The notes: a model not told the origin generated them from the sequence alone. Numbered from the stretch's first letter, positions 1,871 through 47,397 are shown. The stretch is 64,000 bases of DNA from an uncultured bacterium (GCA_963801165.1 CAWDDT010000013.1:160001-224000), one strand, 5' to 3'. Translations and numbers: made by a program.

Positions 1871-1954
1871 GCGGGCGTGGCGGAAATGGAAGACGCGCCA
1901 GGTTTAGGTCCTGGTGGGCGAAAGCCCGTGGGGGTTCGAGTCCCTTCGCCCGCA
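1871..1954 (+). tRNA. tRNA-Leu(TAG), integration target
   Basis: GCGGGCG/CGCCCGC acceptor stem; CCAGG-TT-TAG-GT-CCTGG anticodon arm; long variable arm GGGC-GAAA-GCCC; GGTTCGAGTCC. Confidence 0.96.
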
Positions 1955-1955
1955 C
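1900..1955 (+). repeat. attL (3' half of tRNA-Leu)
   Basis: AGGTTTAGGTCCTGGTG and CGTGGGGGTTCGAGTCCCTTCGCCCGCAC both recur at 14477-14531. Confidence 0.9.
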
Positions 1956-2029
1956 TTGAGCCAGATACCCGCCCATCAGGGGATTCTGCCTCGCGGGCGG
2001 GTCCGCCGCCGGTCGACGAAGACAATCGT

Positions 2030-2049
2030 TTCTACCCAATCTTCTACCC
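2030..2049 (+). repeat. Putative integrase arm-type binding sites (TTCTACCC x2, 12-bp period), left arm
   Basis: TTCTACCCAATCTTCTACCC; the same tandem motif with the same period occurs at 14342-14361 near the other end. Confidence 0.7.
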
Positions 2050-2825
2050 GACCTCGTAGCGAGTCCAGAGGGGAACCGGGGCGATTAGCCATCGTTGCGC
2101 TCCGCACCGCGACCGCATGCCGATGCGCGGCAGCCAGTACCGTCTGATGTCGGCTCGTGCTTTCGCATGTGGGCCGTGGCGCTAACTGGCAGCAAGCTGG
2201 AAGGTCGCGTCGTGTGTGAACGTCGTCAGCGCCGTCTCGTCGCTCTGGCTGCCACTCTCAAACCTCCTTGAAGGTGTGAGCGGGGACCTGCTGGTCGTCA
2301 GACCGCTCGAGGTATTGCCGGGGGATGTCCGACGTGGCTTTGAGTGTCGCCGGGTGATTGGACCCCCGACGAGGCTCGCTTGTTCGACGGGTTATGAGCC
2401 CTTTCGGGTTCCCTTCATCATTTCGCGTTATCGCTCAATAGCCCGTGAGCCTGGGGTCCTGCGGGATCAGCGTGCTTCCTGATTCCGGCAGATGACCCCT
2501 CGTGACGCCCCGTCCGTTGGAAGGTTCGTTAGAAGAATGGCGTTCAGACCATGGGTCTTCGCCCTGCCGTGGCACCCACGCCCGGCGCCTCGGAACCACC
2601 TGATGGACGTCTTGTACGGTGGTGGCCGGTTTTGAAGACCGTTCGGGGCATTTCTCGGAAGTCGGCGACTCGCTGGGGATTCTGGCGTAAACCCTTATGA
2701 CACAATGGTTTACGACCACTCATCATCGTTGGTCATCTCGCGGTGGTTTGCATCGTTTCTCGTTCTCCCGCGCCCCCAGCGCGCCCCGAGATGCGGAAGA
2801 CTGCTCGCCGCGCTCACGCCCGGAT

Positions 2826-3140
2826 TCAGTCGCGGAGGGTTCTGAGAATGTCCTTCATGAGCAAGACGAGATGGAGGGCGTCGGTCGGTGACGGCTCGAA
2901 CTCGGGGATGAGATGGAGGTGGAAGTCGCGGGCCTGCGGTGTCTCGGCGTGAACAGCAAGCCCCGGCATCCGATCTCAGTGCCGAGCTGCGCCGTCCGGC
3001 TGATGGCGTCGGCGAGGAGACCGGCGCCGAGCCCGCGGCCCTCGTGCTCGCTCGACATCCCGAGAAGAACCAGCAGCGCCACCGACTGTGGGATAGCGGC
3101 CGGCACCATTGCTAACCCGGGTCGGAGCGTCCTCGGCGCA
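2826..3140 (-). pseudogene. GNAT acetyltransferase toxin (TacT/AtaT-like) remnant
   Basis: Across two frameshifts (~3089 and ~2953) it reads EDAPTRVSNGAGRYP/QSVALL...HEGRGLGAGLLADAISR...IGCRGLL/VHAETPQARDFHLHLIPEFEPSPTDALHLVLLMKDILRTLRD*; N-terminus missing. Confidence 0.8.
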
Positions 3141-3223
3141 CTCCCGGATAGCCACCGACCAACGAGCGCCAGCGTGAGTGCCGATGCAGAGCAGCATTTG
3201 AACTGCGCGATATCGCTCGGGAA

Positions 3224-4573
3224 TTGATGATCTGCGATATCCATGCCATAGGCATGACCGATGGGCGAGATTTTCGTGTGCCCATTGCGGAGATTCTCGG
3301 CCAGAATGGAGTCGTGGAATCCCGACCGCCCCTCGTAGGTGCACCCGCGCCGGAGCAGCAAGCAACCCGTTCCCTCGTCTTCTTGGCCGTGGTGGGCATT
3401 GCTGCCGGACTCTTTGGGTATCTTCTTGGAGTGACTGCCAACAGCGGTCAGGAGCCGGACCCGCCGAACGGGTTTCTTGCTCCTGTGGTATCTGGCGCCA
3501 CGACCGATACAAAGCAGGAGAATGACCGGACAGCGTCATCGTCGACAAGAGTGCCGGCGCTGGGTGCGACTAATGGTGCCACCTCTATGCCGCCGGTGCC
3601 AGGCCTTGTATCCGGTCCTGCCCTGCCGCAGGATCTACGTAGCTCGAGGTTCCGTCTCTTTCGGGGGGTGTGGCCGGAGCTCACGCTCGAGGAATGGACA
3701 ACCGAAGGTATCACGGCATCCGTACAGCTGCCGTGGCTTGCGAGTGGGCTGTCTGCCGACCAATCCGACGAACTGTTCGCATTCACCGCGCCGTCAGCCA
3801 CCGGGCAGACTCTCTATGTAGGCAGAAACAACATGTATGTAGCGGTATCAGCCGAACTTGCGGGAGGATGGTCATGGCACGGTTCTGAACCTGGGAAAGC
3901 AGCCTGGATCGAGGCGAGTGATGACGGGCGAGTAATGGTGTTCGGCCGACTTCAAGCAGAGATCTTGGGTGATCGTGGAGAGTATCTCGATGTAGCGGTA
4001 AATGCGCGGCACATCGGCGGAGCGCAACCAGATGAGTCGATCGTGGGACTTACGAGGTTTGGGATCGTGCTCCGCTCGTTCGACGAATCGGGACGGGCCA
4101 AGCTCGTCGCCCTTGACGGTGAAGTAGTGGCAGAAGCTGAGGGTATATTGCCGCTCGCCATCTCCGCCGACGGCTATGGATTGGCGGTTGTTCGATCGGA
4201 GGACCAGATTCAGTACGTCATCACCGACGAGGAGTTGAACCCTGTGACCAATCTCGGCCGCTATGACACGACAGCCGATTGGGTCGAATGGTCGCCGAGT
4301 GGCGAATACGTCGCATTCACACACACCGCTTTCCAAGATCGGGCATCGGACAGCGAGGTCCACCTTGAGATTTGGACCAGAAACGGACAGCCCGTGTTGG
4401 ACGTCCCGATACGTGCCGCAGTGTGGGATGGCGCTTGGACCGCTGATGAGTCGCGAGTAGTCATGGTGGCGAGCGATGCCGGTCCATGGCTTATCGCCAA
4501 CCCATCGACCGGCCAAATCCAAGCCCAGACCGTTGCGGCGGTGGCGGTGGCCGAGATAGACGCCAGCGGGTGA
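3224..4573 (+). CDS. Membrane-anchored protein with probable beta-propeller (TolB/WD40-like) domain
   Basis: Single TM 'LVFLAVVGIAAGLFGYLLGV', Pro/Ser/Thr linker, blade-like motifs 'VEWSPSGEYVAF', 'AWTADESRV', 'ISADGY'; start may be ATG 3254. Confidence 0.6.
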   Translation: MMICDIHAIGMTDGRDFRVPIAEILGQNGVVESRPPLVGAPAPEQQATRSLVFLAVVGIAAGLFGYLLGVTANSGQEPDPPNGFLAPVVSGATTDTKQENDRTASSSTRVPALGATNGATSMPPVPGLVSGPALPQDLRSSRFRLFRGVWPELTLEEWTTEGITASVQLPWLASGLSADQSDELFAFTAPSATGQTLYVGRNNMYVAVSAELAGGWSWHGSEPGKAAWIEASDDGRVMVFGRLQAEILGDRGEYLDVAVNARHIGGAQPDESIVGLTRFGIVLRSFDESGRAKLVALDGEVVAEAEGILPLAISADGYGLAVVRSEDQIQYVITDEELNPVTNLGRYDTTADWVEWSPSGEYVAFTHTAFQDRASDSEVHLEIWTRNGQPVLDVPIRAAVWDGAWTADESRVVMVASDAGPWLIANPSTGQIQAQTVAAVAVAEIDASG

Positions 4574-4778: not shown

Positions 4779-5405
4779 CTAGTCCAGGAGCCCTTGCTGT
4801 GCTGCCGCCATGAGCGCTTCGGTTTTGTTGGACGCGTCTAGCTTCCGGTACGTCGTAGCCAAAAGACGCTGCATGTTCCGTTCGCTATAGCCGATTGTGT
4901 CGGCCAACCTGCCAATCGTCACCCCGGAGGCGAGGATACGAAGCCAGTCAATCTCCTGGTCCGTCACTTGCATCGCGCCTTGACCCCTCGTGTCGGTTGG
5001 CGTCCAATCGCGAAAGACAACATGAGGCGCAATGGAGAGTCCCGCTCCGACGGCCTCTACGGCAACTACTAGCCAGTCGACAGACATCGCCACTGGAAGA
5101 ACGACCCACGCGCCGTATCGAAAGAGGGGTTCCGATAGGGCGGGCGAGGCAACCAGCGCGATGGTTGGGATCTGGGGAGTGTTCTCGCGAATTCGCAAGA
5201 ACAAGTCACAATCCTGTCGAGAGGCGCAGCCTGCTACCAGCAACGATGCGGACTCGCCCGCCACTGCCCACGCAACCGGATGGCTAACTTGCTGCACGTT
5301 CATACCGGCGGCTACGAGCACTGACTCGGCGCCAGCGGCTGTGAGTGGTGCAAGGCTTTTGGTTGCGATCCCGATCCGCATGTGTGCCCCCCTGTCGAAA
5401 CCCAC
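4779..5405 (-). CDS. LuxR/NarL-type regulator with degenerate receiver domain
   Basis: C-terminal 'VTDQEIDWLRILASGVTIGRLADTIGYSERNMQRLLATTYRKLDASNKTEALMAAAQQGLL'; REC-like N-terminus lacking obvious acidic residues. Confidence 0.8.
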   Translation of the reverse strand: MGFDRGAHMRIGIATKSLAPLTAAGAESVLVAAGMNVQQVSHPVAWAVAGESASLLVAGCASRQDCDLFLRIRENTPQIPTIALVASPALSEPLFRYGAWVVLPVAMSVDWLVVAVEAVGAGLSIAPHVVFRDWTPTDTRGQGAMQVTDQEIDWLRILASGVTIGRLADTIGYSERNMQRLLATTYRKLDASNKTEALMAAAQQGLLD

Positions 5406-5780
5406 ACGCCCCGCATTATCAGCCTACCCGATCACCAGACTTCTCGGCTCGGTATGCGCGAGAGCTTCCGGCGTCGCTTTCCCAATGACGGCGGACGCGA
5501 GAGGTGGCTTCTGCATATCGACCCATTGACGAGGGAGTCAGGCGCGAGGCCAGAGGCGTGGACCGCATTAGGCGGGGGGTTTGTGCCTGCATTGCGACGA
5601 CAAATGGCTGGCCGCTTCGGGCCAACCTTTGTCGTTGACGCGAGCTGGTGTCGTATCGAGAGGGATAGGGCAGGAGGTTTGTGAACTGATGCTGAGACCG
5701 GGCATAGACGACAGCGCTGGTAGGTTCGAGGCCGGGATCTTGCAGAGTCTCCTCGTGGTCGCCGCGGGTACGGGGGGAGT

Positions 5781-6368
5781 GTGATGTCTGCGAGGCATCT
5801 TGATCGCCGGGAAGTCCTCAGAATGATGGGGGTCTTTGTAGGAGGGGAAGTCGTCCTTACGAATCTTGGGGCCAGTCCTGCACGTGCCAGATCGGAGAAT
5901 CGGTACCGTAGCGACGCCATCGTTGTGGGATCGGTCATGGCTGTCGAAGCGGATTCGAATCAGATTGCGATCCGATCTGCTGTCCGATCTGAGGGATTCG
6001 TGGATATCGTCTGCTCGTCCAGGACGGTGTTCCTGCGTGACAGGCCTGCTGCAATCTCTGACTTCCTGACCGGAGACAAGATTGCGGTATTCGGAAGCCG
6101 CCAAGGCCAGTCACTCTTTGCAGCGACGGCTGTCCAGCCCGCCTATGAGGCGATGTTTGTTGATGTTGAATGGCCGCTCCCGGAGCGTGATATCACTATC
6201 CGAACTGAGCGGGGCGATCTCCTCATTCCCAACGGTGTCCTCAAGGTTGGTGAGACTGACCCAGCTCTCGTAGGTGATTTGACCCGAGTTCAGGCAACAG
6301 TTCGTCACGAGCCAGCGACGAACCGCTACGTGGCCGCCCTGATAGGCAACGGAGGCCACCACTCATGA
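5781..6368 (+). CDS. Tat-exported protein with OB-fold/DUF5666-like repeats
   Basis: Twin-arginine motif 'DRREVLR'; 'ISDFLTGDKIAVFG' is typical of DUF5666-like beta-barrels; stop overlaps the next start (ATGA). Confidence 0.6.
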   Translation: MMSARHLDRREVLRMMGVFVGGEVVLTNLGASPARARSENRYRSDAIVVGSVMAVEADSNQIAIRSAVRSEGFVDIVCSSRTVFLRDRPAAISDFLTGDKIAVFGSRQGQSLFAATAVQPAYEAMFVDVEWPLPERDITIRTERGDLLIPNGVLKVGETDPALVGDLTRVQATVRHEPATNRYVAALIGNGGHHS

Positions 6369-6934
6369 GCGTTCCGTCGGTTCTTGGCTGGATTGTCATT
6401 GTGACTTTGTCATGGGCCGGTGCAGCGAAGCTCCTTAACCCAGCCGCGACACTTGGTGGTATCCGGTCTACGCTTCGGGCTGTACCGATACCTCGCTGGT
6501 CGGTCTGGTTCTTGGTCGCAGCGGAACTCGGTATCAGCGCCGCCTTGGCGTTCGGATTGCTTAGCGGCAGTTTCGTCCAACCGCCAGCGCTAGGAGCTGG
6601 GATCCTTCTCGCATTGTTCACGGTGATAAACGCCGTGGACATGATCCAGGGCGGTGAAAGTTCGTGTGCGTGCTTCGGCGCCACCGACATCTATCCGATA
6701 AGATTCAAGTCCTTCGCCTTGGCCAGATCTGCGTTCCTCAGCTCGCTTGCATTTGTCCTAGCCGTCGCCCCACCGGGCCAAACCAGTGCCGTCGAAGAGA
6801 CGAAGGCCGCCATCCTCGCAGTGAGCATCGTCGCGATGGCAGCCGTGATTCTAAGGGCTGTCCAATCGGTACGCCTGTGGCCCGCGCACACAGTCAAAGT
6901 CAAAGAGGTAGTCGAAGAGGTTCTGGCGGTCTAG
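6365..6934 (+). CDS. mauE: MauE/DoxX-family redox-associated membrane protein
   Basis: 'AGAAKL..P', 'VAAELG', 'SCACFG' motifs and about 5 TM helices. Confidence 0.85.
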   Translation: MSVPSVLGWIVIVTLSWAGAAKLLNPAATLGGIRSTLRAVPIPRWSVWFLVAAELGISAALAFGLLSGSFVQPPALGAGILLALFTVINAVDMIQGGESSCACFGATDIYPIRFKSFALARSAFLSSLAFVLAVAPPGQTSAVEETKAAILAVSIVAMAAVILRAVQSVRLWPAHTVKVKEVVEEVLAV

Positions 6935-6982
6935 GAGCGATGAACATGCACCCAACAGGTACGAAACGACCGGGAGAGATCT

Positions 6983-7603
6983 ATGCCTGAAATGGATACC
7001 GCCTTGGTTGCAGCTCTCTTGGCATGGCAGGTCGTTGTAGCCGTTCTGATAGCAGTCCTTTTCCGGCAGGTCGCGCTGCTGTCAATCGCTATGAGTCAAC
7101 AAGACCCACCAGCGCGCAACTCAAATCTGGCAGTTGGGGTCCCAATCCCCCAAGAACTTGACTCAGACATGGTTGACCCCGCCGAAACAACGTACGTGTT
7201 CTGGCTATCCGTTGGCTGCGACGCGTGCGTCAGAGTTGCAGAAGAACTGGGCACCGCGATTTCGACGGGTGCATGGACCGAATCAACAGTTGCGTTGATC
7301 ACGGGGCCAGCCACCGCGGCTACGTCGCTATCGGACACAGCAGCCCTTCAGAATCGCACCATCGTCGACCCAGATGCCAGCTCAATAATCGAGACTCTCG
7401 GCCTGACAACGTCACCGTTCGTGATCAAGACCGCGAATGGCGTCGTCAGGGGGTGGAGCACCGTTACAAGCATTCCGGACTTGGAGAAGCTACGAACCGA
7501 TCCCGCCAGCGGCGATACTGACAAACGGGAGGAAGAGCAGATCGCATCGCCGAAATCTGAAGAGGCAGGGTCTACTCCATCAACATCGGGGTCGCACCGA
7601 TGA
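6983..7603 (+). CDS. MauD-like membrane-anchored thioredoxin-fold protein
   Basis: N-terminal TM ending 'VLFRQVALL', 'GVPIP', CxxC 'WLSVGCDAC', cis-Pro loop 'TSPF'. Confidence 0.8.
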   Translation: MPEMDTALVAALLAWQVVVAVLIAVLFRQVALLSIAMSQQDPPARNSNLAVGVPIPQELDSDMVDPAETTYVFWLSVGCDACVRVAEELGTAISTGAWTESTVALITGPATAATSLSDTAALQNRTIVDPDASSIIETLGLTTSPFVIKTANGVVRGWSTVTSIPDLEKLRTDPASGDTDKREEEQIASPKSEEAGSTPSTSGSHR

Positions 7604-7983
7604 TCAGCTCGCAGCGAACGGACGAGGACCTGCGGATATCGAACTCCGAGTCTGTTCCCAGCGGACCCACGTTCTTGACGCGGAGCGCATTTCTTGCTCG
7701 TGCCGCTGCCGTAGCGTTTGGCACTGCGGCCTTCCTGTTCGGCCTGCCAATGCCCTCCGCTCTGGCGTCGCATAACAGGTGTTGTCATGAATCCACTCCC
7801 CTCTGTTCTTGCTGCAACGGAGACACCTGCTGCGCTTCCGGCTGCACCATCCGGTGCGGCGATTGCCCTGGTGGTGGGTGCTCGTGGACGTGTTGCTACG
7901 GGACTGCGCTTTGGAACTGTAAGGACTGGAACGATCCAGCAGTAGGGAACTGCGTATGCATCGAAGGGTTGAGTCAATGCTAG
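7600..7983 (+). CDS. Tat-exported cysteine-rich peptide, distantly MauA (amine dehydrogenase light chain)-like
   Basis: Degenerate Tat motif 'TRSAFL', hydrophobic stretch, ALA cleavage site; predicted 71-aa mature region has 17 Cys and 3 Trp; 'CPGGGCSWTCC'. Confidence 0.75.
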   Translation: MISSQRTDEDLRISNSESVPSGPTFLTRSAFLARAAAVAFGTAAFLFGLPMPSALASHNRCCHESTPLCSCCNGDTCCASGCTIRCGDCPGGGCSWTCCYGTALWNCKDWNDPAVGNCVCIEGLSQC

Positions 7984-8038
7984 GTGGCCACTGGAAACGA
8001 TCCATCGGCAGCTCGACTTATGACGACATTGGAGCACC

Positions 8039-8740
8039 ATGAACACTGGACTGGTCGCCGTCCTATCGGCCGCAGCAATCACTGCCGCTCTCGTACAGCA
8101 AACACTTCCGTGAGGCGTCAACCTGGCACAAGACACCAGGTTTCCCGAAGGTCTTCGGGGCAGAGCCAAACCAAGACTCATTGCCAGCAGCTGGCACCTC
8201 ATCTTGCTGGGCGCTACCAGCGCACTGGCAGGCGCCGCGATAGGGCTTGGTCTCGGGGCTCTCAGCTCTGTGCTCAATCTGCCTCAACAGGGTTCCGTCG
8301 TTGCAGCTGCGACCCTCGGGATGGTGCTTGGCGGTCGAGAAGTGGCTGGTGCCAGTCTGAATCTGTGGCAGATCGACCGCGAAACACCGCGAGTTTGGGC
8401 AGAACGATCTCCGTTCTCCTGGGCAGTGAGAACGGGAACCCTCATCGGAACAGGGTTCGTCACCCGTATCGGCTACACCGTGTTCTACGTGGCTCCGATC
8501 GGTATCCTTCTTGCAGCAGACTCAATCAGCGGGGCAATCATCCTGGGAGCATACGGTGCCACAAGAGGCTTCTCGTCCCTGGTGCTCAACCGCCGCCTGG
8601 CCCTGGATGCCGGATTCGATACGCTAATGATGATTCTTTTCGGGTTGAGGACTAGAGCTCGGGTCCTCTCTGGAGTGGCGACGACACTCGTTTCCCTCAC
8701 AGGGCTGGCGTGGGCGCTCGTCTCAGCCGCCCAAGCCTAG
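8039..8740 (+). CDS. MauF/CcdA-like membrane protein with in-frame TGA at 8111 (candidate selenocysteine; alternatively a nonsense pseudogene)
   Basis: GGAG at 8031, ATG at 8039, MNTGLVAVLSAAAITAALVQQTLP-TGA-GVNL..., in frame with ORF 8204-8740 ('WQIDRETPRVW...GTLIGTGFVTRI', MauF-like). Confidence 0.75.
8114..8160 (+). promoter_or_regulatory. Candidate bacterial SECIS region (two hairpins after the in-frame TGA)
   Basis: AACCTGG(8120-26)/CCAGGTT(8136-42) stem with a 9-nt loop, and CCCGAA(8144-49)/TTCGGG(8154-59) stem with a GGTC loop. Confidence 0.4.
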
Positions 8741-9118
8741 AAACCAGGGGATCCCTTTGGTGTTCGTTGCGCACCCAAGCCCGACGTTGACGGCGAACCG
8801 GTCTTGTTTGGGCCTGTGAGCGTCGTCGTAGACGCGACCGGATCCTCGGTAGCAGGTTCGATTGTTCACAATCTGGGCGACAACGTGGGGACCGTGTACC
8901 ACAATAATCCGGAGCGAGCGAGGTCTCGGAGCGCTCCATTCCGTTTGGGAGGAGGGCCGAGCATCGCCAAACATAGTTGTGCGCTCAAGGAGTCGGATCG
9001 GTCAACGGTGCCCTAGATCACCTACCGCCCCGCACGTTATCGCACCAGCGTCCGGCAACCGGCAGTCGGCGCTGGCAAGACAGTGTCTGGATCGGGCTAG
9101 GCGTGGAGTGCCCGTATG

Positions 9119-11866
9119 TCAGCGGCCGATGTCGGGGATGTGCCGGGTCCAGGCGTGCTCGGTGATGTGGCGTTGCCTGGCGGTTTCGATGCTCTGGTTA
9201 ATCTGCTGCCAAATGCGGTTGTCGTCGGGGCTGAGATCCGGCTTGTCGTCGTGGTCGGTTGGGTGCGTTGCTTCTTGCTGATCGCCTCCGAGCTGGCTGT
9301 GTCCGAGCGAGGGGTTCAACACCCTGTCGGCTTCGAGGCGCGTTCGTTGGGTGATGGCGGGCTCGTCGATCCAATCCCGGATGATGGCTTGGGTGAGGAT
9401 ATCGGCTGCCGTTTCGCCTTCGTTGGTGACGACGTAGGCGTGGTTGGAGCTTCGGCCGCGGGTCAGCGGCGTGTAGAGACCGCGGCCGTCGACGGGGCCG
9501 TCAACGAGGAGGAGACCGGTGTCGACGGTGCGGCCTTGGGTGGCATGGCTGGTCTGCGCATAGCCAAGCTCGAGATCCTCAGCGGCGTAGTCGGCGGGAA
9601 GACGCACCCTGCCCGAGCGTCCGGTGACGGTGACGGCGCCGTCGGTGTGGATAGCTTCGATCGTCCAGTGGTCCCGGTTCTTGACCATGGCGCCGCGGTC
9701 GGTGCGCAGGGTGCGCTGGTTACGGCGGGTAACCACCTCGTCGCCGACGAGCAGCCGCTCACGGGCAACGTCGAGGGCCGGCCCGTCCGGGTCGAGCTCA
9801 CCGGCGTCGATGCGTCTCTGTTGGGCATGCTGGTTGAGCCGGTTGACGGTGTGGTTGGTGTTGGCCATCAACGCCACCGACTCGCCCCGCCGCCGCGCCT
9901 GATACCAGGCGTCGACGACGGCGGCCTCCATCTCGTTGGGGGTGCCGTCGTGGAGGCGACCGTGACGCTGATACTCGCCGAGCACGCCGATGTCGCCTTG
10001 GCGGAGACGCCGGGTGGCGTCGGCTTCCCAGTCGTGGGTGAAGCGGTGGATGTGGTCAAGTTCGATGGCACCACAGGTGTCGATGAGGTGGGCGAACATG
10101 CCGCCCCGACCAACAGCGGAGAACTGGCGGGGATCACCCACCATCACCACCCGCCATCCTTTCACGTCGGCGAGATCGACGAATGCCGCGAGTTTCGGGG
10201 TGGAGACGGTGCCGGCTTCATCAACGATCACCGTCGAACCCCGCGGCAAATCGTATCCCGGTTGTGGTGGCCGGTCGGGCCGGGAGTGTTCGTAGAGGAG
10301 CTTGTCCAGCGTGTCGGCCATCATGGTGGTTTCTGCGGCGAGCACCTCGGCGGCCGCTGCGGTGGCTGCCACCCCGAACACCGTCTGGCCGCGGTGCTGT
10401 AGGTAGGCGACGGCGGGGGTGAGGGCGACGGTCTTGCCGGATCCGGCGGGTCCGACGATCAGCTCCAACGGTACGCTACCGGCTACTGCCCGACACGCTT
10501 CGGACTGGCCCACACTCAAACCGGCCGTATCGAGACCCCGACGTGGGGTGTTGATGATGTCGGCGAAACGGCGCAGGCGTTGAGCCCATTCCACGATCCG
10601 TTCCTCCTCCTCAAGAATCGCTCCGGTGGTGAGGGCCCGGTCGACGGCGGCTTCGGCGATGGGGCGCCCATCACGGCGCAACACGGCACCAGACGGCACG
10701 GGTGGGGACAGGTCGACACAGCGGTCCGCCGCAACACGGTTGGCGAGGTCCTGCAGGAAGCTGCACAGACGATCCGGTTCGACGGTGACATTGGTGGGGA
10801 CCTGGGCGGCGAGCTCACGGACCAGCTCGGCGGGACGCCACGTCGACTGCCGCTCCCCCAAAGCCTCCAACGCCCCCTCCACCATCCCTGTCATTGTCGC
10901 CTGGTCGATGCCCGCCGCCCGACGGACCCGACCCACCGCGCCCACGGCGATGTCGTGTGGCTCGAAACCGCGAGCGGCCGCCCGCATCCGCCACCCGGCA
11001 TGCAACTCGCCCGCAGCGTGATCGTGAGTCTTAGCGGGGCGACTATCGAGCACGGCTTCGCGTTCCAAGCGCCACCGCTCCCGTCCAGTCGGTTCCCGCC
11101 CGAGGTCGCTGCGGAACCGAACCAGTTTTCCGCCAACCCGCTGCTCGACGTCATGGCTGCGTTGGGAGAACTCGGCCAGTATCTCCGCATCGACACCGAC
11201 CATCTCGGCAATCCCATTGTCAGGTTGGTGCCATCGGACACCGAGGCGGCGGGTCAGCTCGGCCCGTAGCCCGGCGTGATACAACCCCGACAGGGTCCGC
11301 TGATCCATCTTGATGGTGCGGGCATCGAGCGCCAACCACCGTCCGTCCGGAGCCTTGACTCTGTTGGCGATCACCGCATGGGTATGCAGCTGCGGGTCGA
11401 GGCGACGGCTGGTGTGCTGACGAAACACCCCCACCACGATCCCTTCGGCGTCAACACACATCACATGACCCCGCCGCCGCATCCTCGTGTGCGCTTGGGA
11501 CTCGACCCAACCCAACACCGCGTCGACCGCCTGGCCATGCGCCTCGGTCACCTGTGCCCTGAGGTGTTCGTCGCCCATGGCGAACAGCACCGACACCGAC
11601 TTCGGCGCCGAAAAGGTCGCATCGAACCCCCGCACCGAGTCATCCCCGAAGCGGCGACCCAACCGCTCCCCCGTCGTCGGATGCAATCCGGCCATCACCG
11701 CCAGAAACGCCTCATCCTCGACCACACCATCCAGACCCAACTCGGCGGCGCCGTATCCGAACCAGCGACCCGGCGGCTCACCACTGTCGAGGTAGTACGA
11801 CGGGAGCTGCTCGGTGTAATAGCGACCCGCCTCGGCACCTTTCAACGTCGTCACCCGCACCGTCAC
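9119..11866 (-). CDS. mobF: MobF (TrwC-like) relaxase-helicase
   Basis: N-terminal YY motifs, 'FDATFSAPKSVS', HUH 'HTSRRLDPQLHTH', Walker A 'GPAGSGKT', 'DEAG', 'GYAQTSHATQGRTVD'. Confidence 0.95.
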   Translation of the reverse strand: MTVRVTTLKGAEAGRYYTEQLPSYYLDSGEPPGRWFGYGAAELGLDGVVEDEAFLAVMAGLHPTTGERLGRRFGDDSVRGFDATFSAPKSVSVLFAMGDEHLRAQVTEAHGQAVDAVLGWVESQAHTRMRRRGHVMCVDAEGIVVGVFRQHTSRRLDPQLHTHAVIANRVKAPDGRWLALDARTIKMDQRTLSGLYHAGLRAELTRRLGVRWHQPDNGIAEMVGVDAEILAEFSQRSHDVEQRVGGKLVRFRSDLGREPTGRERWRLEREAVLDSRPAKTHDHAAGELHAGWRMRAAARGFEPHDIAVGAVGRVRRAAGIDQATMTGMVEGALEALGERQSTWRPAELVRELAAQVPTNVTVEPDRLCSFLQDLANRVAADRCVDLSPPVPSGAVLRRDGRPIAEAAVDRALTTGAILEEEERIVEWAQRLRRFADIINTPRRGLDTAGLSVGQSEACRAVAGSVPLELIVGPAGSGKTVALTPAVAYLQHRGQTVFGVAATAAAAEVLAAETTMMADTLDKLLYEHSRPDRPPQPGYDLPRGSTVIVDEAGTVSTPKLAAFVDLADVKGWRVVMVGDPRQFSAVGRGGMFAHLIDTCGAIELDHIHRFTHDWEADATRRLRQGDIGVLGEYQRHGRLHDGTPNEMEAAVVDAWYQARRRGESVALMANTNHTVNRLNQHAQQRRIDAGELDPDGPALDVARERLLVGDEVVTRRNQRTLRTDRGAMVKNRDHWTIEAIHTDGAVTVTGRSGRVRLPADYAAEDLELGYAQTSHATQGRTVDTGLLLVDGPVDGRGLYTPLTRGRSSNHAYVVTNEGETAADILTQAIIRDWIDEPAITQRTRLEADRVLNPSLGHSQLGGDQQEATHPTDHDDKPDLSPDDNRIWQQINQSIETARQRHITEHAWTRHIPDIGR

Positions 11867-11962: not shown

Positions 11963-12367
11963 TCAGTCGGCGGTGGCTACTCGGTCGAAGAGATCGAGTT
12001 GGTCGGTAGTAGCGCGTTGGCGAGTTCGCGACCGTCGGCTGGTGGTTGTGACGGTTGCAGGATCGGGGTTGGCGGGAAGTTCTGGACCCATCGCCGCTCG
12101 GGCCTGCGGCGTCCCCGTGGACTCCGGGTCGTCGTTGCTGCTGGAGACGTCCACGCTCGACAGGTCGGCACCGATCATCTCCTCGAGGGCTGAGCGTGGC
12201 ACCCGCAACACGTGACCGAGATCGACTACCGGCAGCCCGGAGTGACCGCCGGTCTCCCGCCACTCCCGCGCCATGGCATACGCCTTGGTGCGCCCGATCC
12301 GCAACAGCTCTCCGGCCTCTTCGACCGTCAGCAGCAACGGAATCGGTACCCCATTCACAATATACAA
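11963..12367 (-). CDS. Excisionase-like HTH DNA-binding protein
   Basis: 'PLLLTVEEAGELLRIGRTKAY...LPVVDLGHVLRVPRSALEE' (HTH_17/Xis pattern); divergent from the XRE regulator. Confidence 0.85.
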   Translation of the reverse strand: MYIVNGVPIPLLLTVEEAGELLRIGRTKAYAMAREWRETGGHSGLPVVDLGHVLRVPRSALEEMIGADLSSVDVSSSNDDPESTGTPQARAAMGPELPANPDPATVTTTSRRSRTRQRATTDQLDLFDRVATAD

Positions 12368-12453: not shown

Positions 12454-13197
12454 ATGCCCGCACATCCAGATCCACCACCCAGCGGCGAGGTCGACCTCAA
12501 CCAGATCGTCGCCTACAACCTGCGCGAAGCCCGCCAACTACGCGGATGGACCCAAGAAGGGCTCGCCGACCGGCTCGAGCCCTACCTCGGCCAACGCCTC
12601 ACCCAGGCCGGCATCTCCTCGATGGAAAGGGCCTGGGACGGAGACCGCCGACGAGAGTTCGACGCACACGAACTGCTGATCTTCGCCATGGTGTTCGACC
12701 TCCCCATGCTCTACTTCCTACTCCCCCCACCCGGCGACCGCCGCCGCCTTCAAGCCACCAGCGCCCAAGTCAACCATCTGTACGCCTGGCTCCTCGGCCG
12801 GCACGGACAGGTTGAACCGGTGTACGAACGGCTCCGCCAGCTCGGCATCACCGACCCCACCGCAGCCGAAGAGACCGTCGAGAAGATCACCGGGATCCCC
12901 GGCGCAGCAAAGCAGTGGAGCTACCGGGAACGGCGCAAGGAGCTGCTCCTCGCCATCCTCAACGAGCACGCCGACGACTTCGACAAGAACATCGAAGAAC
13001 TGGGACGCATCGTCGACCACCTCCGCCAGGTCGGCATCCGCGGCTTCGTCGCCGAACACACCCACGACGAAGACTTCACCTACCGAGAAGGCCACCCACC
13101 ACGGACGGTACGTCAGGACCCTCTCGTTAGCCGTGAGAACGAGGCAGCACGAGACGACTCAAGCGATGAGAGGGCGACACCGGGAGGTAGGCCGTGA
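12454..13197 (+). CDS. XRE-family HTH regulator of the element
   Basis: 'NQIVAYNLREARQLRGWTQEGLADRL...TQAGISSMER'; stop overlaps the integrase start. Confidence 0.85.
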   Translation: MPAHPDPPPSGEVDLNQIVAYNLREARQLRGWTQEGLADRLEPYLGQRLTQAGISSMERAWDGDRRREFDAHELLIFAMVFDLPMLYFLLPPPGDRRRLQATSAQVNHLYAWLLGRHGQVEPVYERLRQLGITDPTAAEETVEKITGIPGAAKQWSYRERRKELLLAILNEHADDFDKNIEELGRIVDHLRQVGIRGFVAEHTHDEDFTYREGHPPRTVRQDPLVSRENEAARDDSSDERATPGGRP

Positions 13198-14393
13198 GGC
13201 GTCGAGGGCACATCGCCCGGAAGGGCCGGAAGTTCTACGCAGTCGTCGACCTTGGGCGCGACGAGCTGAGCCGCAGGCGCCGTCGGCGATGGTCACGCGG
13301 GTTCGAGACGGAGAGCGAGGCCGACGCCGAGCTCGTCCGGCTCCTCCACTCCCTCGACCAAGGCGACTCGATCGAGCGAACCAAGCTCACCGTCGAGCGG
13401 TACCTCTTGGAGCGGTGGCTCCCCATTGCCGAAGGAAACCTGGCGGTTACCACGCAGAAGGAGTACCGGGTGACCGTGACGGCGTACGTCGTCCCTCACA
13501 TCGGGCATCTTCGGCTCAATCGAGTCGATGCCACAACGATCGACCGACTGTACGTGAAACTGCGCAGGGAGGGTGGCCGCGATGGTCGCCCGCTGTCCGC
13601 CAAGACGGTCCGGAACATCCATGGTGTGCTGTCGGCGGCGTTCGGGTTCGCCGTCAAGAAAGGCCTGCTCACCCGCAACCCGGTGGCGCTCGCCGAAACA
13701 CCGGACGCGGGGCGACCCGACACGGCTCCACCGTGGACCGCCCAAGAGCTTCGGTCCTTCATCAACCACGTCGACGGTGACCGCCTGGAAGCGCTGTGGT
13801 GGATGATCCCGTTCACCGGGATGCGCCGCTCCGAGGCGCTTGGCCTCGCCTGGGACGACGTGGATCTCGACCGCGGGACGATCGCCGTGACCCATACGGT
13901 CGTGGACGCCGACGGTGGACCAGTAAGGCGCCGCGACACCAAGACGCGGCAAAGCCGACGCCCGATCTCGCTCGACGTCGACACGCTGGGAAAGGTCCGC
14001 GAGCATCGCCGCCGTCAGCTCGAGGAGCGGATGTTCGTAGGCGCCGGCTACAACGACATCGGTCTCGTGTTCTGCCGCCCCGACGGGTCGACGCTGCGTC
14101 CCGATTGGGTATCACGACGCTTCGCAAGGATCAGAGACGAGGCCGGTCTACGGCGAATCACCCTTCGCGATCTCCGTCACGTATGGGCGACACTCGCCCT
14201 GGAGTCAGGCATCCACCCCAAAGTCGTCCAGGAACGGCTCGGCCACTCCTCGATCGCCATGACAATGGACCAGTACTCACACGTCATCGAAGGTCTCGAC
14301 CGCCAAGCAGCGGCCACGGTGGCCGACCTGGTGCTCCGACCTTCTACCCAGACTTCTACCCAACCCCCCGCCATCGGACGCGATCAGGCATAA
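13194..14393 (+). CDS. int: Tyrosine recombinase/integrase
   Basis: Arm-binding N-terminus; 'TGMRRSEALGLAW', 'RDLRH', 'VQERLGHSSIAMTMDQYSH'; adjacent to attR. Confidence 0.96.
   Translation: MRRRGHIARKGRKFYAVVDLGRDELSRRRRRRWSRGFETESEADAELVRLLHSLDQGDSIERTKLTVERYLLERWLPIAEGNLAVTTQKEYRVTVTAYVVPHIGHLRLNRVDATTIDRLYVKLRREGGRDGRPLSAKTVRNIHGVLSAAFGFAVKKGLLTRNPVALAETPDAGRPDTAPPWTAQELRSFINHVDGDRLEALWWMIPFTGMRRSEALGLAWDDVDLDRGTIAVTHTVVDADGGPVRRRDTKTRQSRRPISLDVDTLGKVREHRRRQLEERMFVGAGYNDIGLVFCRPDGSTLRPDWVSRRFARIRDEAGLRRITLRDLRHVWATLALESGIHPKVVQERLGHSSIAMTMDQYSHVIEGLDRQAAATVADLVLRPSTQTSTQPPAIGRDQA
14342..14361 (+). repeat. Putative integrase arm-type binding sites, right arm
   Basis: TTCTACCCAGACTTCTACCC, matching 2030-2049. 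Confidence 0.7.
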
Positions 14394-14476: not shown

Positions 14477-14531
14477 AGGTTTAGGTCCTGGTGAGCAATG
14501 CTCGTGGGGGTTCGAGTCCCTTCGCCCGCAC
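14477..14531 (+). repeat. attR (displaced 3' half of tRNA-Leu)
   Basis: Anticodon loop to acceptor stem duplicated; variable arm GAGC-AAT-GCTC instead of GGGC-GAAA-GCCC; no 5' half. Confidence 0.92.
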
Positions 14532-19745: not shown

Positions 19746-20185
19746 GCAGTCGGACTCTAGGGCGTCATTGCCCGCTCCGGCGGTCGCGACCAGCGCAGAC
19801 GCGGAAGAACCCGGAGCGTCTTCGGTCGTCACGAGGTTCTCGAGACGTTGACCGCCGCGATAGGACCAGATCGCAGATCTCCGGGTTCCGGTGGTCCGAG
19901 TTGGAGTCGCCACCTGACCTCACGCAGAGGTCAAAGCAGCTACTCGAACGGGTAGCCGCTTAGCGCTCGGCCACCTCCAGGGTCCTATTAGAACTGTCAT
20001 GCATTGCTTGGACCACCTCCCTTCTCTGGTGAGCGCATTTTGCCACACTTGCGCAACTTGTCGAGCGATATTGACGAATGACCGATACGCATATACGCAT
20101 TAGTTGTCGACGCTACTCATCAATTGTGGTTATGCTCCGCACCGCAGGGCACCATTGCGCCCTGCCCTACGGGAGGTAATGAAGA

Positions 20186-21532
20186 ATGAACATGCTCAAA
20201 CCGAACCGCTTTGTTCTGGCACTGGGCGCCTTTGCACTGCTGATAGCAGCCTGCGGCGGCGGCACAGACACAGCAACAACGACGGCACCGGAGACCACCG
20301 CAGCGACAACCACAACAGCTGCTGCGACAACTACAACGGCCGCGGCTACAACCACCACCGCGGCGGAGACAACCACGACTGCGGCGGCCATGCCGGACAA
20401 CGCCGACGGCGTTCTCAAGTTCGGCTACGTGCTGCCGCAAACAGGTGCTCTCTCCGCCATCATCGATGCGTTGGTCAAGCCGATCGAGATGGCGCAGAGC
20501 GAGATCGCGGATGCCGGCTTCGATTTCACCCTGGTGCCCGGCGACTCCGGTACCGATCCGGCAATCGCATCGACTTCAGTCGACGGTCTCTTGAATGACG
20601 GTGTCGACGCCATCTTCGGTGCCGCCGCATCGGGAGTCTCGGAATCCATCCTCAGCAAGGTGACCGGCTCCGGGGTGGCAATGTGCTCCGGTTCCAACAC
20701 CGCGGCATCGCTGACCACAGCCGATGACGGCGGGTTCTACTTCCGGACAGCACCGTCCGACGTTCTCCAGGGTCCGGCTCTTGCCGACGTGATCACCGGC
20801 GACGGCGCCTCGAGTGTCGCCATCGTTTACCGCAACGATGAGTACGGCGCCGGCTTCAACGAGGCGCTTGCAAGCGGTCTCGAGGACAATGGCGTCACCG
20901 TTGCCACCCAGATCTCCTACGACCCGAACGCCACATCGTTCGATGCTGAAGCCCAGCAGATCGCAGACGCCGGGGTCGATGCCGTCGCCATCATCGTGTT
21001 CGGTGAAGGTGCTCAGTTGCTCCAGGCGATGATCGAGGCTGGCGTTGGCCCTGCCGATGTCCAGATCTACGTCGCCGACGGCTTCAAGGACACGGTTTCC
21101 GCTGCTGACGTCGATCCGAACAACGCTGCGGTGCTCGAGGGCATCCGCGGCACGGCTCCGTCGGCCAACCCACCCAACGGCGAGGCGACGTTCGGTGACC
21201 GGCTCGAGGCGTTCGCTCCGGGCACACCGACGATCTTCTCGGCTCAGTTCTACGACTGCACCGTGGTGTTTGCGCTTGCGTCTGCTATCGCCGGCACCGA
21301 CGACGTGTCGGTGTGGGTCAACGAGGTGAACGGAGTGACCAAGGACGGTACGAAGTGCACCAGCTTCGCCGATTGCTACACGCTCGTGCAGGCGGGCGAG
21401 GACATCGACTACGACGGCGCCTCCGGTCCGCTCGAGTTCACTGATGTGGGCGAGCCGTCCACGGGCGTCTACGACGTCTTCCAATACGACTCCGACGGGA
21501 ACGCACAAACCGAATCCCAGGTCGAGGTCTAG
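20186..21532 (+). CDS. Branched-chain amino acid ABC transporter substrate-binding lipoprotein
   Basis: Lipobox 'IAAC', Thr/Ala-rich linker, 'FRTAPSDVLQG', 'DIDYDGASG'. Confidence 0.92.
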   Translation: MNMLKPNRFVLALGAFALLIAACGGGTDTATTTAPETTAATTTTAAATTTTAAATTTTAAETTTTAAAMPDNADGVLKFGYVLPQTGALSAIIDALVKPIEMAQSEIADAGFDFTLVPGDSGTDPAIASTSVDGLLNDGVDAIFGAAASGVSESILSKVTGSGVAMCSGSNTAASLTTADDGGFYFRTAPSDVLQGPALADVITGDGASSVAIVYRNDEYGAGFNEALASGLEDNGVTVATQISYDPNATSFDAEAQQIADAGVDAVAIIVFGEGAQLLQAMIEAGVGPADVQIYVADGFKDTVSAADVDPNNAAVLEGIRGTAPSANPPNGEATFGDRLEAFAPGTPTIFSAQFYDCTVVFALASAIAGTDDVSVWVNEVNGVTKDGTKCTSFADCYTLVQAGEDIDYDGASGPLEFTDVGEPSTGVYDVFQYDSDGNAQTESQVEV

Positions 21533-44653: not shown

Positions 44654-47005
44654 TCAGCCGGTGGGTTGACTCAGCAGCGCCCGATACAGGAACGCTGACA
44701 TCTGTGCTCTGGTCACGGGTGCGTCGGGACAGAAGTGGTCATTGGCGGGCGGGTTGCAGCCCAGCGTCACGCCGGCTTCAGCCAGGCGGTCGATGTCGTC
44801 CCGGAACACCGAGTCGTCGTCATCGGTGAACCGATCGGAGCCGGATCCCTCCGTGTAATTGAAGGCCCGCACCAGGAACGCAGCCATCTGACCGCGAGTG
44901 ACGATTTCGTCGGGACAGAACTCATCATTCGCCGGAGGATTGCACCCCTTGGTGACGCCGGCAGAGCCCAGCCACTCGATATCTGCGACAAACACCGAAG
45001 CTGCAATGTCTTTGAAGCTGACGGGTCGAGCCGCATTCAGCACGTCTGCAAGCGCCCGGTGCAAGAACGCGGCCATCTGCCCCCTCGTCACAGGGGCGTT
45101 GGGGCAGAACTTGTCATTGGCGGGCGGGTTGCAGCCCTTGGTGATCCCTTCGAAGGCCAGCCACTCGACGTTCACGAAGAACGTATCACCGAGAGGCACG
45201 TCATCGAAGGAAGGGGCCACCGGGATCTCGAACGCATCGAGCACCTCGATCGTCATCATGGCGGTGTCGGTGGCGAGACCATCGCTCACAGAGACGGTCA
45301 ATCCGTACGAGGGCTTCGTCTCGAAGTCGAGCGACCGTGCCACCTCGATCGACCCGTCCGATCCGATGGCGAAGTCACCCGACGGGTCACCCGCCGTGAT
45401 CGACAAATCGAGCGGCGTTCCATCTGGATCCGACGCATCGACGGTCCCGACACTGTCACCGATGGCCGCGTCTTCAGCAATCGACAACGATCCGTCGGCG
45501 ATCTCGGGAGCCCGGTTGCAGCGAGCCGGAACCGCAGTCATCCACGGCGTGAAATCAACGTCGGTGCTCACCGTATCGCCGGACCCCGGACCTTCCCCGG
45601 ACGGCCCGTCCGCGCTGCCCCACCAGTTGTCTTCAAAGACCGTGACGCTACCCGTGTCATTCACTAGACCGGCCTTGTTGTCCACCACGCAGTTGCCCGT
45701 GGACCCGGCGTCGAAGCGGACGTTGTCGAGAAGGTAGATACCACGGTTGTTGGAGTTGAGCACGTCGTTGCCGGCGACCACGTGCGATCCCGAACCGCGC
45801 AGAGCGATTGCGGTGTTGTTGCCGAAGTCGCCGTTGCGCTCGTTATCGGCGCCGAGAATGTTTCCGGAGATGAGAACGCTCGCAGTGGTTGCCGACCCGC
45901 TTACATCTATTCCGGTGCCGGAGGCAGCGATGGTGTTGTCGCGGATCTCGAGACCGGTGTTGGCAGACCCGACGTCGGTCATTTGCACTGCGATCCCGAC
46001 GCCAAATGCCTCACCGTCCGGGGTGATCCCGAAGCTATTGCCCACGACCCGATTACCGGTACCGGTGTCGGCCTGGATAAACACGCTCTTGTTGCTGCCG
46101 AAGTAGTTGCGCTCGATATCGTCAGAGACACTGTCCTGATTGCTCCCAATCAGATTGTCGGACGACGACTGCTTGACGTAGATGCGGCCCGAGTCCACGA
46201 CGGTCGCTCCGTCGGCGCCGATCCCGAACAAGTTGCCGGCGATAACGTTGCCGTCGTTGTCGTTGATGTAAACGGCGTTGCCACCCTCCCCGAAGACGTT
46301 CCGCTCGCCGACGTCGTTCGATCCGTCACCATCGGTACCGACCGTGACTCCTACCGCCGTGCCCTCGATTGACACCTGCGACGAGAAGGCGTCGACACCG
46401 AGCGGATCGATCCCGGCCGCGTCGAGACCGAAATGGCTGCACTCGATCGAGTGCGATCCCGCCAGTACCTTCACCGCTGCGGTGGAGCCGACCGCGTTGT
46501 CCGTGCCAAACGAAAACCCGCGGATCGTCGACGATCCCGATGCGTGGTTGAGCTCGAATACAGTGGCGCCGTCGGCGTCGGCGCTGCTGGACACAAGTTC
46601 GATGCGCATATACGAGGGTTCGGAAGGGGTCGCACAAACGTTCGCTCGGGAGCCGCCGTTCTGAGGCTGTGTCGTGCCGTCAACGGTGACCGACTGGGTC
46701 ACCGCAATGGGGCCCTCGGTCAGGTCCATCCGGCACACGCCACCCGGACAGGAGCCGGAGGGAATGTCGAAGTCGATGACGTCTGCAGTGCCCGTCACAT
46801 TGGCCGCGGAGATGGCACCGCGCAGGCTGCAGTCCCCGGCAGCCCCGGTACATGCGGACAGCGCGGCATCGTCAGAAACGGTGTCGACCACGAACGTCTC
46901 GGCCGCCGCGGCCGGAGTGGCGCGAACACTGATGACCGCGAGACTTGCAATGAGCGCCAGCACCGCAAGCGCGCCAAACGAGATCCGACCAACCGTTGAA
47001 GACAT
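44654..47005 (-). CDS. Secreted surface protein: CSLREA/beta-helix, cadherin-like domain, 3 SLH repeats
   Basis: Signal peptide; 'CSLRGAI'; 'GNLFG/GNSFG' beta-helix repeats; 'LDFE..PSYGLTVSVSDG'; 3x 'GCNPPAND.FCP...VTR.QM'. Confidence 0.88.
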   Translation of the reverse strand: MSSTVGRISFGALAVLALIASLAVISVRATPAAAAETFVVDTVSDDAALSACTGAAGDCSLRGAISAANVTGTADVIDFDIPSGSCPGGVCRMDLTEGPIAVTQSVTVDGTTQPQNGGSRANVCATPSEPSYMRIELVSSSADADGATVFELNHASGSSTIRGFSFGTDNAVGSTAAVKVLAGSHSIECSHFGLDAAGIDPLGVDAFSSQVSIEGTAVGVTVGTDGDGSNDVGERNVFGEGGNAVYINDNDGNVIAGNLFGIGADGATVVDSGRIYVKQSSSDNLIGSNQDSVSDDIERNYFGSNKSVFIQADTGTGNRVVGNSFGITPDGEAFGVGIAVQMTDVGSANTGLEIRDNTIAASGTGIDVSGSATTASVLISGNILGADNERNGDFGNNTAIALRGSGSHVVAGNDVLNSNNRGIYLLDNVRFDAGSTGNCVVDNKAGLVNDTGSVTVFEDNWWGSADGPSGEGPGSGDTVSTDVDFTPWMTAVPARCNRAPEIADGSLSIAEDAAIGDSVGTVDASDPDGTPLDLSITAGDPSGDFAIGSDGSIEVARSLDFETKPSYGLTVSVSDGLATDTAMMTIEVLDAFEIPVAPSFDDVPLGDTFFVNVEWLAFEGITKGCNPPANDKFCPNAPVTRGQMAAFLHRALADVLNAARPVSFKDIAASVFVADIEWLGSAGVTKGCNPPANDEFCPDEIVTRGQMAAFLVRAFNYTEGSGSDRFTDDDDSVFRDDIDRLAEAGVTLGCNPPANDHFCPDAPVTRAQMSAFLYRALLSQPTG

Positions 47006-47397
47006 TTCTCCCCTGCCTCTCCCTGCTATGTCGTGAAACCTAGCCGACGCGCGCGTGTGATTGCGACACTTTTCGGTCCGACCCTGCCCCGTCGGTAAGA
47101 TGCTGATCACCGAAGTGGGAACTGCCCGGCGGCGAGGCCCCACTTGTGGCCCGTATCACCGGCTGCAGTCTGATCTGTTCCAGGACGTGGCAAATCGTGT
47201 CGGCGTGGGTGACCTCAATGGGTGTGAGCGTTCGGTTTGAGTTGGGAATGATTTCGCGTTCTACTGGGACAACGTGGCATCGAGCGCGTTGATCGGGTCG
47301 ATCCGCTGGGAGCTACCCCGGGTGGGCTGCTGGTCGCAATCGAGCGGCGGGTTCCATGCGAGCCGGCCTCGCCGTGCGAGCGTTGCCGACGGTGCGA

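Follow-up and report, generated by a model that had tools for sequence, protein, structure and literature searches.

The closest described counterparts of the gene cluster examined here, which occupies positions 5781–8740 of a 64,000-nucleotide stretch of DNA from an uncultured bacterium (GCA_963801165.1, CAWDDT010000013.1:160001-224000; the whole stretch is referred to below as the window), are MauE proteins with a generalist role, candidate peptide families that include mauE, and the mauE-mauD-mauA core of amine-dehydrogenase loci. The cluster comprises five genes, g1–g5, of which g2, g3 and g4 form a candidate cassette for the oxidative folding of a Cys-rich secreted protein. According to the available part of a preprint on MauE (bioRxiv 10.64898/2026.03.05.709764), two MauEs substitute for DsbB in Escherichia coli in two assays, the C-X-C motif is needed in these DsbB-complementation assays, the F-G that follows it is conserved, and a conserved Lys and a conserved Glu are predicted to take part in quinone binding. 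The same text counts thioredoxin fusions as 8.2% of the InterPro MauE entries and finds MauA in only 10.2% of MauE-bearing species, so that a mauE gene without mauG and mauB is the rule and not an anomaly.

The second precedent is the decRiPPter study (PMC7794033), whose available text describes three Streptomyces candidate families of peptides made on ribosomes and modified after translation (RiPPs) with mauE, one of which also has mauD; their precursors contain at least eight Cys residues, the genomes have no other mau genes, and the authors proposed that mauE modifies the peptide. With these two sources, the idea of MauE-type folding of a Cys-rich secreted product is already in print. A preliminary description of the window had put the cluster forward as an undescribed system, and it is preceded in this respect by the combination of mauE with families of Cys-rich precursors that decRiPPter had proposed. 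Nothing closer than these two sources was found in the literature covered, subscription journals lying outside that coverage.

The third group was represented by a reference set of seven genuine amine-dehydrogenase loci, one from a metagenome-assembled genome and six from plasmids, including that of Paracoccus denitrificans PD1222. The first of these, the single locus found by a genome profile scan, is an ordinary alphaproteobacterial mauB-E-D-A cluster. Proteins of the reference loci match the expected models (MauB with 245 bits, MauA with 164 and 399 bits, and P. denitrificans MauD with 383.7 bits), and these strong control scores make the model misses by the proteins of the present cluster meaningful.

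Gene Organization and Comparison with Known Systems

The five co-oriented genes of the preliminary description were recovered as open reading frames (ORFs) on the plus strand within the coordinates given there: g1 (5781–6368, 195 aa), g2 (6365–6934, 189 aa), g3 (6983–7603, 206 aa), g4 (7600–7983, a 127-aa pre-protein) and g5 (8204–8740, 178 aa as called). Four-nucleotide ATGA overlaps at g1/g2 and at g3/g4 suggest co-translation, the spacing between g2 and g3 is 48 nt, and g2–g4 together span about 2.2 kb. The tight packing attributed to the cluster thus applies to g1–g4 and does not extend to g5, which starts 220 nt past the end of g4 at a TTG codon with no Shine-Dalgarno (SD) sequence.

In gene order, g2-g3-g4 repeat the mauE-mauD-mauA core, as seen, e.g., on plasmid 1 of P. 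denitrificans PD1222 (NC_008688.1) and in all seven reference loci: a MauE, an anchored CxxC protein of the thioredoxin fold or, for g3, a candidate for it, and a small exported protein that is rich in Cys and has a long signal. As in that core, g2 is a true MauE and g3 is collinear with MauD. The order, found in 7/7 reference loci, suggests that the module has a common ancestry and that its substrate was exchanged or has altered past recognition. Unlike mau clusters, g1–g5 include no MauB, MauA-type light chain, MauG, MauJ, amicyanin or cytochrome c. The substrates differ as well: g4 has 17 Cys in 71 aa, and MauA has 12 in about 130 aa, as counted from the MauA alignment (A6). The cluster resembles the decRiPPter families labelled 'Methylamine utilisation protein MauE' in having mauE beside a gene for a small Cys-rich precursor, and in the available text of that study (PMC7794033) these families are likewise uncharacterised and no mobile-element context is given; their precursors are 57–66 aa long, with short leaders and about 8–10 Cys, whereas g4 encodes 127 aa with a classical cleavable signal and 17 Cys, and Cys richness is the feature they share in a comparison made by eye only.

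The explanation that we favour, with a confidence slightly above even, is that g2-g3-g4 constitute a self-contained, transferable oxidative-folding cassette for a disulfide-rich secreted protein, carried as cargo by a mobilizable element integrated in a tRNA-Leu gene. The g4 product would be exported via its cleavable signal peptide as an unfolded chain of 71 residues with 17 Cys; g2 would form a disulfide in its C-x-C loop, spending membrane quinone, and would hand this disulfide to the membrane-anchored, putatively thioredoxin-fold g3 (C-D-A-C), which would introduce or shuffle up to eight disulfides in g4. We infer this direction of electron flow and the role of g4 as the substrate. The earlier suggestion that disulfide machinery serves a Cys-rich exported product other than methylamine dehydrogenase fits the evidence, except that its term 'repurposed' presumes that MauE belongs to mau clusters.

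Assignment of g2 and g3

The assignment of g2 to MauE, already made in the preliminary description from its SCACFG motif, is solid: g2 matches PF07291 (MauE) with 49 bits against a cut-off of 27 (E 9.8e-13), and an hhalign comparison with a profile of the seven mau-cluster MauEs gave a probability of 95% (E 3.2e-8). Among the five genes, g2 is the sole demonstrable member of a family. An exhaustive phmmer search of 1.84 billion representatives placed the nearest non-self relative at 32% identity (E 1e-14), and E ≤ 1e-3 was reached by only 47 sequences; on these similarities, g2 is an outlier within the MauE family. Aligning 35 of these 47 sequences showed C101, C103 and F104 without variation and K22, E54 and G105 conserved to 90% or more. 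K22, E54 and the C101-x-C103-F-G stretch (with Ala at the variable position in g2) match the features tied to activity, conservation and predicted quinone binding in the available part of bioRxiv 10.64898/2026.03.05.709764, and g2 is predicted to be a quinone-linked disulfide generator in the membrane. Nine of the 47 hits exceed 320 aa in length, and eight of these nine carry a C-terminal thioredoxin-fold domain (AhpC-TSA, Thioredoxin_2 or Redoxin).

The g3 protein has a single N-terminal transmembrane (TM) segment (residues 3–39) and exactly two Cys, both in GCDAC. Aligned by hhalign with a profile of seven MauD sequences, it reached a score of 34.1 (E 1.5e-4, probability 52%) over 161 collinear columns, where the anchor, the juxtamembrane R-Q, CDAC on CPxC and the Pro before β3 on the MauD Pro are paired. 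When the anchor was kept and the rest shuffled, none of 100 sequences reached 34.1 (mean 26.2, maximum 31.1); the soluble part alone scored 19.9, compared with 12.5 ± 2.0 for its shuffles, of which again 0/100 came as high. Cross-controls against the MauA, MauF and MauB profiles gave 13.7 at most. The soluble part also matched the thioredoxin domains fused to MauE (E 0.0047, reached by 0/40 shuffles) along the L-x-V-G...P stretch, the first strand and the CxxC helix. The similarity of g3 to MauD thus appears weak but specific and collinear, and we conclude that g3 is probably a MauD-like anchored thioredoxin-fold protein and not a MauD equivalog, TIGR02661 being matched by the P. denitrificans control mentioned above and not by g3. 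From the earlier label, 'MauD-like CxxC thioredoxin', the anchor, the CDAC motif and the specific, if weak, MauD similarity stand, and a match to TIGR02661 or to a thioredoxin family of Pfam does not. More generally, g1, g3, g4 and g5 gave no match to the models of Pfam, even with the threshold at E ≤ 10, or to those of NCBIfam (E ≤ 0.1).

A MauE with a thioredoxin-fold partner might also be a general-purpose Dsb module, with g2 and g3 folding many envelope proteins of any recipient host and g4 being just one neighbour. The available text of bioRxiv 10.64898/2026.03.05.709764 argues for MauE as a generalist (cf. DsbB-DsbA and VKOR-Trx), a view with which the rarity of MauA in MauE-bearing species and the common MauE–thioredoxin fusions agree; g2 shares with the generalist MauE the C-X-C and F-G loop, the Lys of helix 1, the Glu of helix 2 and a candidate thioredoxin partner encoded next door. 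Unlike the MauE of that text, however, the pair appears to be dedicated, being coupled to one extreme substrate, and mobile, with g2 an outlier. The start of g4 overlaps the stop of g3, no other real ORF of the window comes near g4 in Cys density, there would be no reason for a general system to be transferred along with one extreme substrate, and the mauEDA precedent is a dedicated pair; we regard the general-purpose module as improbable.

The 17-Cys Exported Protein g4

All 17 Cys of g4 lie inside the 71 residues past the A-L-A site of a long signal peptide. The predicted mature part is 24% Cys, with four CC doublets (one within a C-x-CC run) and one further C-x-C, and it also contains three Trp as well as Tyr, Gly and Pro. 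This is the highest Cys count of any 71-aa window among the 609 stop-to-stop segments of the 64-kb window. A low-complexity antisense artefact at 20122–20575 (minus strand, opposite the start of a periplasmic-binding-protein gene) has 16 Cys in 71 aa, so the count or density of Cys alone is no proof of a gene. The g4 frame is taken as a real gene because its start is coupled to the g3 stop, its N-terminus has the layout of a signal peptide, and its GC content at third codon positions (GC3) is 0.67 compared with 0.48 in the overlapping antisense ORF; this 309-aa antisense ORF was rejected as a true gene on the same value. No match to g4 was found in the PDB or among plasmids. Its top look-alikes in the ESM Atlas are unnamed proteins of 128–146 aa from Actinomycetota and Chloroflexota, the first hits scoring 0.96, and its ESM 'recognition' of 2007 is under the 2300 reached by 91% of known families.

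Twin-arginine translocation (Tat) signals carry a motif of the S/T-R-R-x-F-L-K type before the h-region. Read by eye, DRREVLR of g1 conforms to it, as had been stated earlier, and TRSAFL of g4, which has a single Arg and is followed by the h-region and A-L-A, does not; the description of g4 as a 'Tat Cys-rich peptide' is correct for the signal peptide and the 17 Cys and fails for the canonical Tat motif. The n-regions of g1 and g4 both align with the MauA signal in hhalign comparisons.

The latter similarity bears on whether g4 is a strongly diverged light chain of the MauA type with a Trp-derived quinone, which, with g1 (in the position of MauB) or a 449-aa protein encoded upstream as its partner, would make an exported dehydrogenase of a new kind with no cluster-encoded MauG. 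In addition to the E-D-light-chain order of the amine-dehydrogenase loci and the three Trp of the mature part, PF02975 is carried by 6 of the 30 ESM Atlas clusters nearest to g4 (best score 0.94), and full-length g4 aligned with the MauA profile at E 4e-4 (hhalign), the aligned portion consisting of the signal and a C-x6-C-x-CC-x-G motif. However, the mature part alone scored 19.5, a value equalled in 6/40 shuffles, the signal supplies the remaining score, and the twin-arginine signal of g1 matches the same MauA region at 25.8; the ESM hit has 159 shared features, under the 170 typical for true family members. BLASTP against one MauA gave E 0.77. PF02975 (Pfam, E ≤ 10) and TIGR02659 (NCBIfam) were not matched by g4, though the control MauAs reached 164 and 399 bits, and a search of the PDB gave no light chain at E ≤ 10. 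The mature part has 71 aa compared with 113 positions of the light-chain model, the alignment ends before the invariant W109 and W160-C161 columns (W109 and W160 of alignment A6 being, as we assume, the cofactor residues), and none of the three g4 Trp directly precedes a Cys.

The partners and the electron acceptors of such an enzyme were looked for as well. Compared by hhalign with a seven-sequence MauB profile, g1 and the 449-aa protein gave probabilities of 0.1% and 0.8%, respectively, and both were rejected as the MauB heavy chain. No MauB (PF06433) was found among the ORFs of the element that carries the cluster, a scan of 12 ORFs of the element and its flanks gave no cytochrome or cupredoxin family, and no real ORF with CxxCH lies between 1956 and 14476, where six-frame translation gives only two occurrences of the motif, antisense to the relaxase gene and in a 16-aa segment. 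In this respect, the preliminary description was right in noting no gene for a CxxCH cytochrome, amicyanin or MauG. As to MauG, the gene is annotated within 6 kb in two of the seven genuine loci, with a cytochrome c peroxidase in a third, and the other four B-E-D-A clusters (L005, L006, L007 and L001) have no annotated mauG within 6–8 kb, only c-type cytochromes; a missing neighbouring mauG is therefore not unusual even for real enzymes, which leaves this point on the side of a quinoprotein. As a whole, the light-chain explanation is considered very improbable. The candidate g4 = MauA was rejected, the mature part aligning no better than shuffles; g4 resembles MauA in position and style, in the manner of an apparent analogue, and homology is not demonstrable by these comparisons. 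The cluster gives no grounds for postulating a new amine dehydrogenase.

A wider form of this idea was also considered, in which g4 would serve as small subunit in an exported redox or cofactor protein of a new kind, descended from or convergent on the tryptophan tryptophylquinone (TTQ) light chain. Its maturation would need the MauE/MauD-like pair and no MauG, its odd 17th Cys would link it to g1, and the whole unit would be transferable together with its folding machinery. We think this highly unlikely to be correct. A mixed disulfide between g4, with its 17 Cys, and g1, which has one Cys, may form.

The Mobilizable Element and Its Cargo

The cluster lies inside a unit delimited by the tRNA-Leu(tag) gene (1871–1955, plus strand; ARAGORN and Rfam), whose 3' part at 1900–1955 represents attL, and by attR (14477–14531, plus strand), a 55-nt copy of that 3' part where no tRNA was called. 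These direct repeats differ by three mismatches and one gap and enclose 12,521 bp. The right part of the unit contains genes of a MobF/TrwC relaxase-helicase (9119–11866, minus strand; PF08751 1.1e-81, NF041492 2e-70), an excisionase-type helix-turn-helix (HTH) protein (11963–12367, minus strand; HTH_17 2.5e-6, TIGR01764 2.6e-4), a candidate HTH_3 regulator (12454–13197, plus strand; HTH_3 0.0022, below the cut-off), whose start was inferred as the first Met after the overlap with the excisionase gene, and a tyrosine integrase with an Arm-DNA-binding domain (13194–14393, plus strand; PF00589 2.3e-22). No families of type IV secretion systems, type IV coupling proteins, or FtsK-type or mating-pore proteins were found among the ORFs scanned with Pfam and NCBIfam. 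Judged by its genes and repeats, the 12.5-kb unit in tRNA-Leu is an integrative mobilizable element, and the mobility proposed in the preliminary description is borne out by the integrase, the excisionase-type protein and the relaxase between the repeats.

The best plasmid matches of the relaxase, with about 34% identity, are in Iamia and Micrococcales and point indirectly to an actinobacterial host, in contrast to the proteobacterial hosts of the mau loci. The GC3 of the cargo, which includes g1–g5, a 449-aa ORF (0.63) and a LuxR-type gene (0.67), ranges from 0.59 to 0.67 compared with 0.79–0.83 in the integrase, the relaxase and four host genes; relative to both the element backbone and the host, the cargo gives the impression of a later or foreign addition, and a different donor seems likely.

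The 449-aa cargo ORF (3224–4573, plus strand; start uncertain) has one TM segment at about residues 46–74, a beta-rich C-terminal half and no family; its AlphaFold 2 single-sequence model is poor, with a predicted local distance difference test (pLDDT) score of 42.7. The divergent gene at 4779–5405 (minus strand, 208 aa) encodes a LuxR/GerE-type regulator candidate: the GerE HTH match (E 0.0013) reaches 18.7 bits, under the cut-off of 23.5, and the NCBIfam model of the MadR C-terminus was matched at 5e-05. PADLOC assigned no families to nine element ORFs. The left 1.3 kb of the element (1956–3224) has no convincing gene; a minus-strand fragment at about 2855–3100 looks GNAT-like by eye and has no Pfam hit.

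Evidence Weighed Against a Folding Cassette

Several results weigh against the reading of g2-g3-g4 as an oxidative-folding cassette. The N-terminal 40 residues of g3 give about 26 of the 34.1 score units of its alignment with MauD, no thioredoxin-type model of Pfam (E ≤ 10) or NCBIfam (E ≤ 0.1) matches g3, and its AlphaFold 2 single-sequence model is unusable (pLDDT 47.0). The number of Cys in g4 is odd, and the 17 residues cannot all pair within one chain; moreover, one earlier study, cited in the available part of bioRxiv 10.64898/2026.03.05.709764, proposed that MauE is possibly a reductase. A sigma-70-like promoter was looked for at 5300–9200, and an inverted repeat in the intergenic region 5380–5800, and neither was found. 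No relatives in which the partnership might be conserved were recovered for g1, g3, g4 or the cluster as a whole: plasmid tblastn/blastn searches with g1, g2, g3, g4, g5 and the whole 2.96 kb gave zero matches, a word-based homologue search confirmed 0 of 9 candidates for g4 (that for g2 returned itself alone among 2517), the exhaustive search having been made for g2 only and not for g1, g3 or g4, and a pattern search of genome contigs with g5 yielded 288 pattern matches, 0 of them confirmed. Finally, the possible interruption of g5 by a stop codon might be a sign that the cassette is decaying.

The odd number of Cys and the possible reductase activity would both suit a metal binder, that is, an exported thiolate-rich, metallothionein-like g4 (e.g., for Cu or Zn), with g2 and g3 keeping its Cys reduced or loading the metal, and so would the Cys content of the mature part, its CC doublets and further C-x-C, and the long Tat-like n-region of the signal. 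That signal, however, lacks the second Arg of the Tat motif, so export in a folded, metal-loaded state is not indicated. Copper storage proteins are helical and Cys-lined, unlike a mature part that contains Trp, Tyr, Gly and Pro. Scans of the element with Pfam and NCBIfam gave no genes for metal transport or metal sensing, and MauE replaced the oxidase DsbB in the two assays described in the available part of bioRxiv 10.64898/2026.03.05.709764. A metal-binding g4 is accordingly thought unlikely.

g1, g5 and the In-Frame TGA Codon

The g1 protein, with one Cys, had been described as DUF5666-like, a label that finds no counterpart among Pfam-A families (none at E ≤ 10); NCBIfam models, the PDB and plasmids gave no match either. 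The g5 protein as called is a multi-TM protein without Cys and without a family, and its ESM look-alikes are actinobacterial hypothetical proteins of 164–177 aa. Upstream of it, an ATG at 8039, with GGAG five bases before it, opens a mini-ORF (8039–8113, plus strand) of 24 hydrophobic codons, which ends with TGA at 8111–8113 in a frame continuous with g5. This continuity is not unusual, about 1.8 stops being expected per 55 codons at the local composition, by estimate. The mini-ORF could be a separate one, the N-terminus of a g5 broken by a nonsense mutation, or part of a recoded g5.

The 'MauF-like' label of g5 was not upheld. When the read-through product was compared with three MauFs by hhalign, the probability was 0.8% and the score 18.8, with 2/40 shuffles as good; in this alignment, the S-P-C-G part of the invariant W-S-P-C-G-Y-S-S of MauF, which itself has no Pfam family, lines up with L-P-[TGA]-G. 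The identity of g5 as MauF was rejected, the score being within the shuffle range and the 178-aa g5 having no Cys, and that as DsbD_2 was rejected too, its basis being only an ESM lead from 16% of the members of one cluster and g5 being Cys-free. Selenium dependence, which had also been proposed, has the in-frame TGA as its sole basis and is not borne out: two hairpins lie 3' of the TGA, the second with a GGUC loop, and 26/200 shuffles fold as well (z −1.18); no Rfam match was found in the region around the TGA, no tRNA-Sec in the 64-kb window and no Sel families in the 34 ORFs scanned. A g5 read through the TGA as a selenoprotein would be a further twist to the cofactor-protein idea considered above.

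The TGA between an SD-led ATG and g5 leads to the explanation of the cluster as decaying or non-functional cargo: an old mobilizable element would carry orphan ORFs, among them a g5 truncated by the stop and a g4 that may be unexpressed or not a gene. The lack of detectable homologues of g1, g3 and g4, the low ESM recognition of g4, the left 1.3 kb of the element and the Cys-rich antisense artefact elsewhere in the window agree with it. At the same time, g2 keeps every conserved MauE position, g4 has a coupled start, a well-formed signal with an A-x-A site, coding-type GC3 and high-scoring first ESM hits, and the word search found one partial relative of the read-through g5 (P0048), encoded on another contig, with 77% identity to the C-terminal 127 residues. 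Decay is given a small but appreciable probability.

As to the remaining genes, g1, g5, the 449-aa protein and the LuxR-type gene might, by way of a guess, have accessory, immunity or partner functions or serve regulation. With a regulator and a membrane protein free of Cys encoded nearby, and in a mobile setting, the folded g4 product is, as a first guess, a secreted bioactive protein of a bacteriocin-like or antagonistic kind.

Outside the element, the window contains a 264-aa ORF without a family at 936–1730, between tRNA-Pro (with partial overlap) and tRNA-Lys; a minus-strand gene at 44654–47143 whose 829-aa product combines cadherin/Big_9 and SLH domains, suggestive of a host surface protein anchored to the S-layer; and a group of large minus-strand ORFs at 47804–58822 (1502, 1253, 375, 263 and 220 aa), where no Pfam family was found at E ≤ 0.01 except for a weak CHAD hit.

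Implications

If g2-g3-g4 do form an oxidative-folding cassette, a horizontally transferred, extremely disulfide-rich secreted protein would bring its own disulfide-forming enzymes, and the trait would work in hosts whose envelope cannot fold g4. With eight possible disulfides in 71 residues, the g4 product could be a very stable scaffold or bioactive protein. The three genes, in about 2.2 kb, would offer a compact test case for MauE as a general DsbB analogue acting through a thioredoxin-fold partner, and also for MauE-linked Cys-rich peptides as an unexplored product class.

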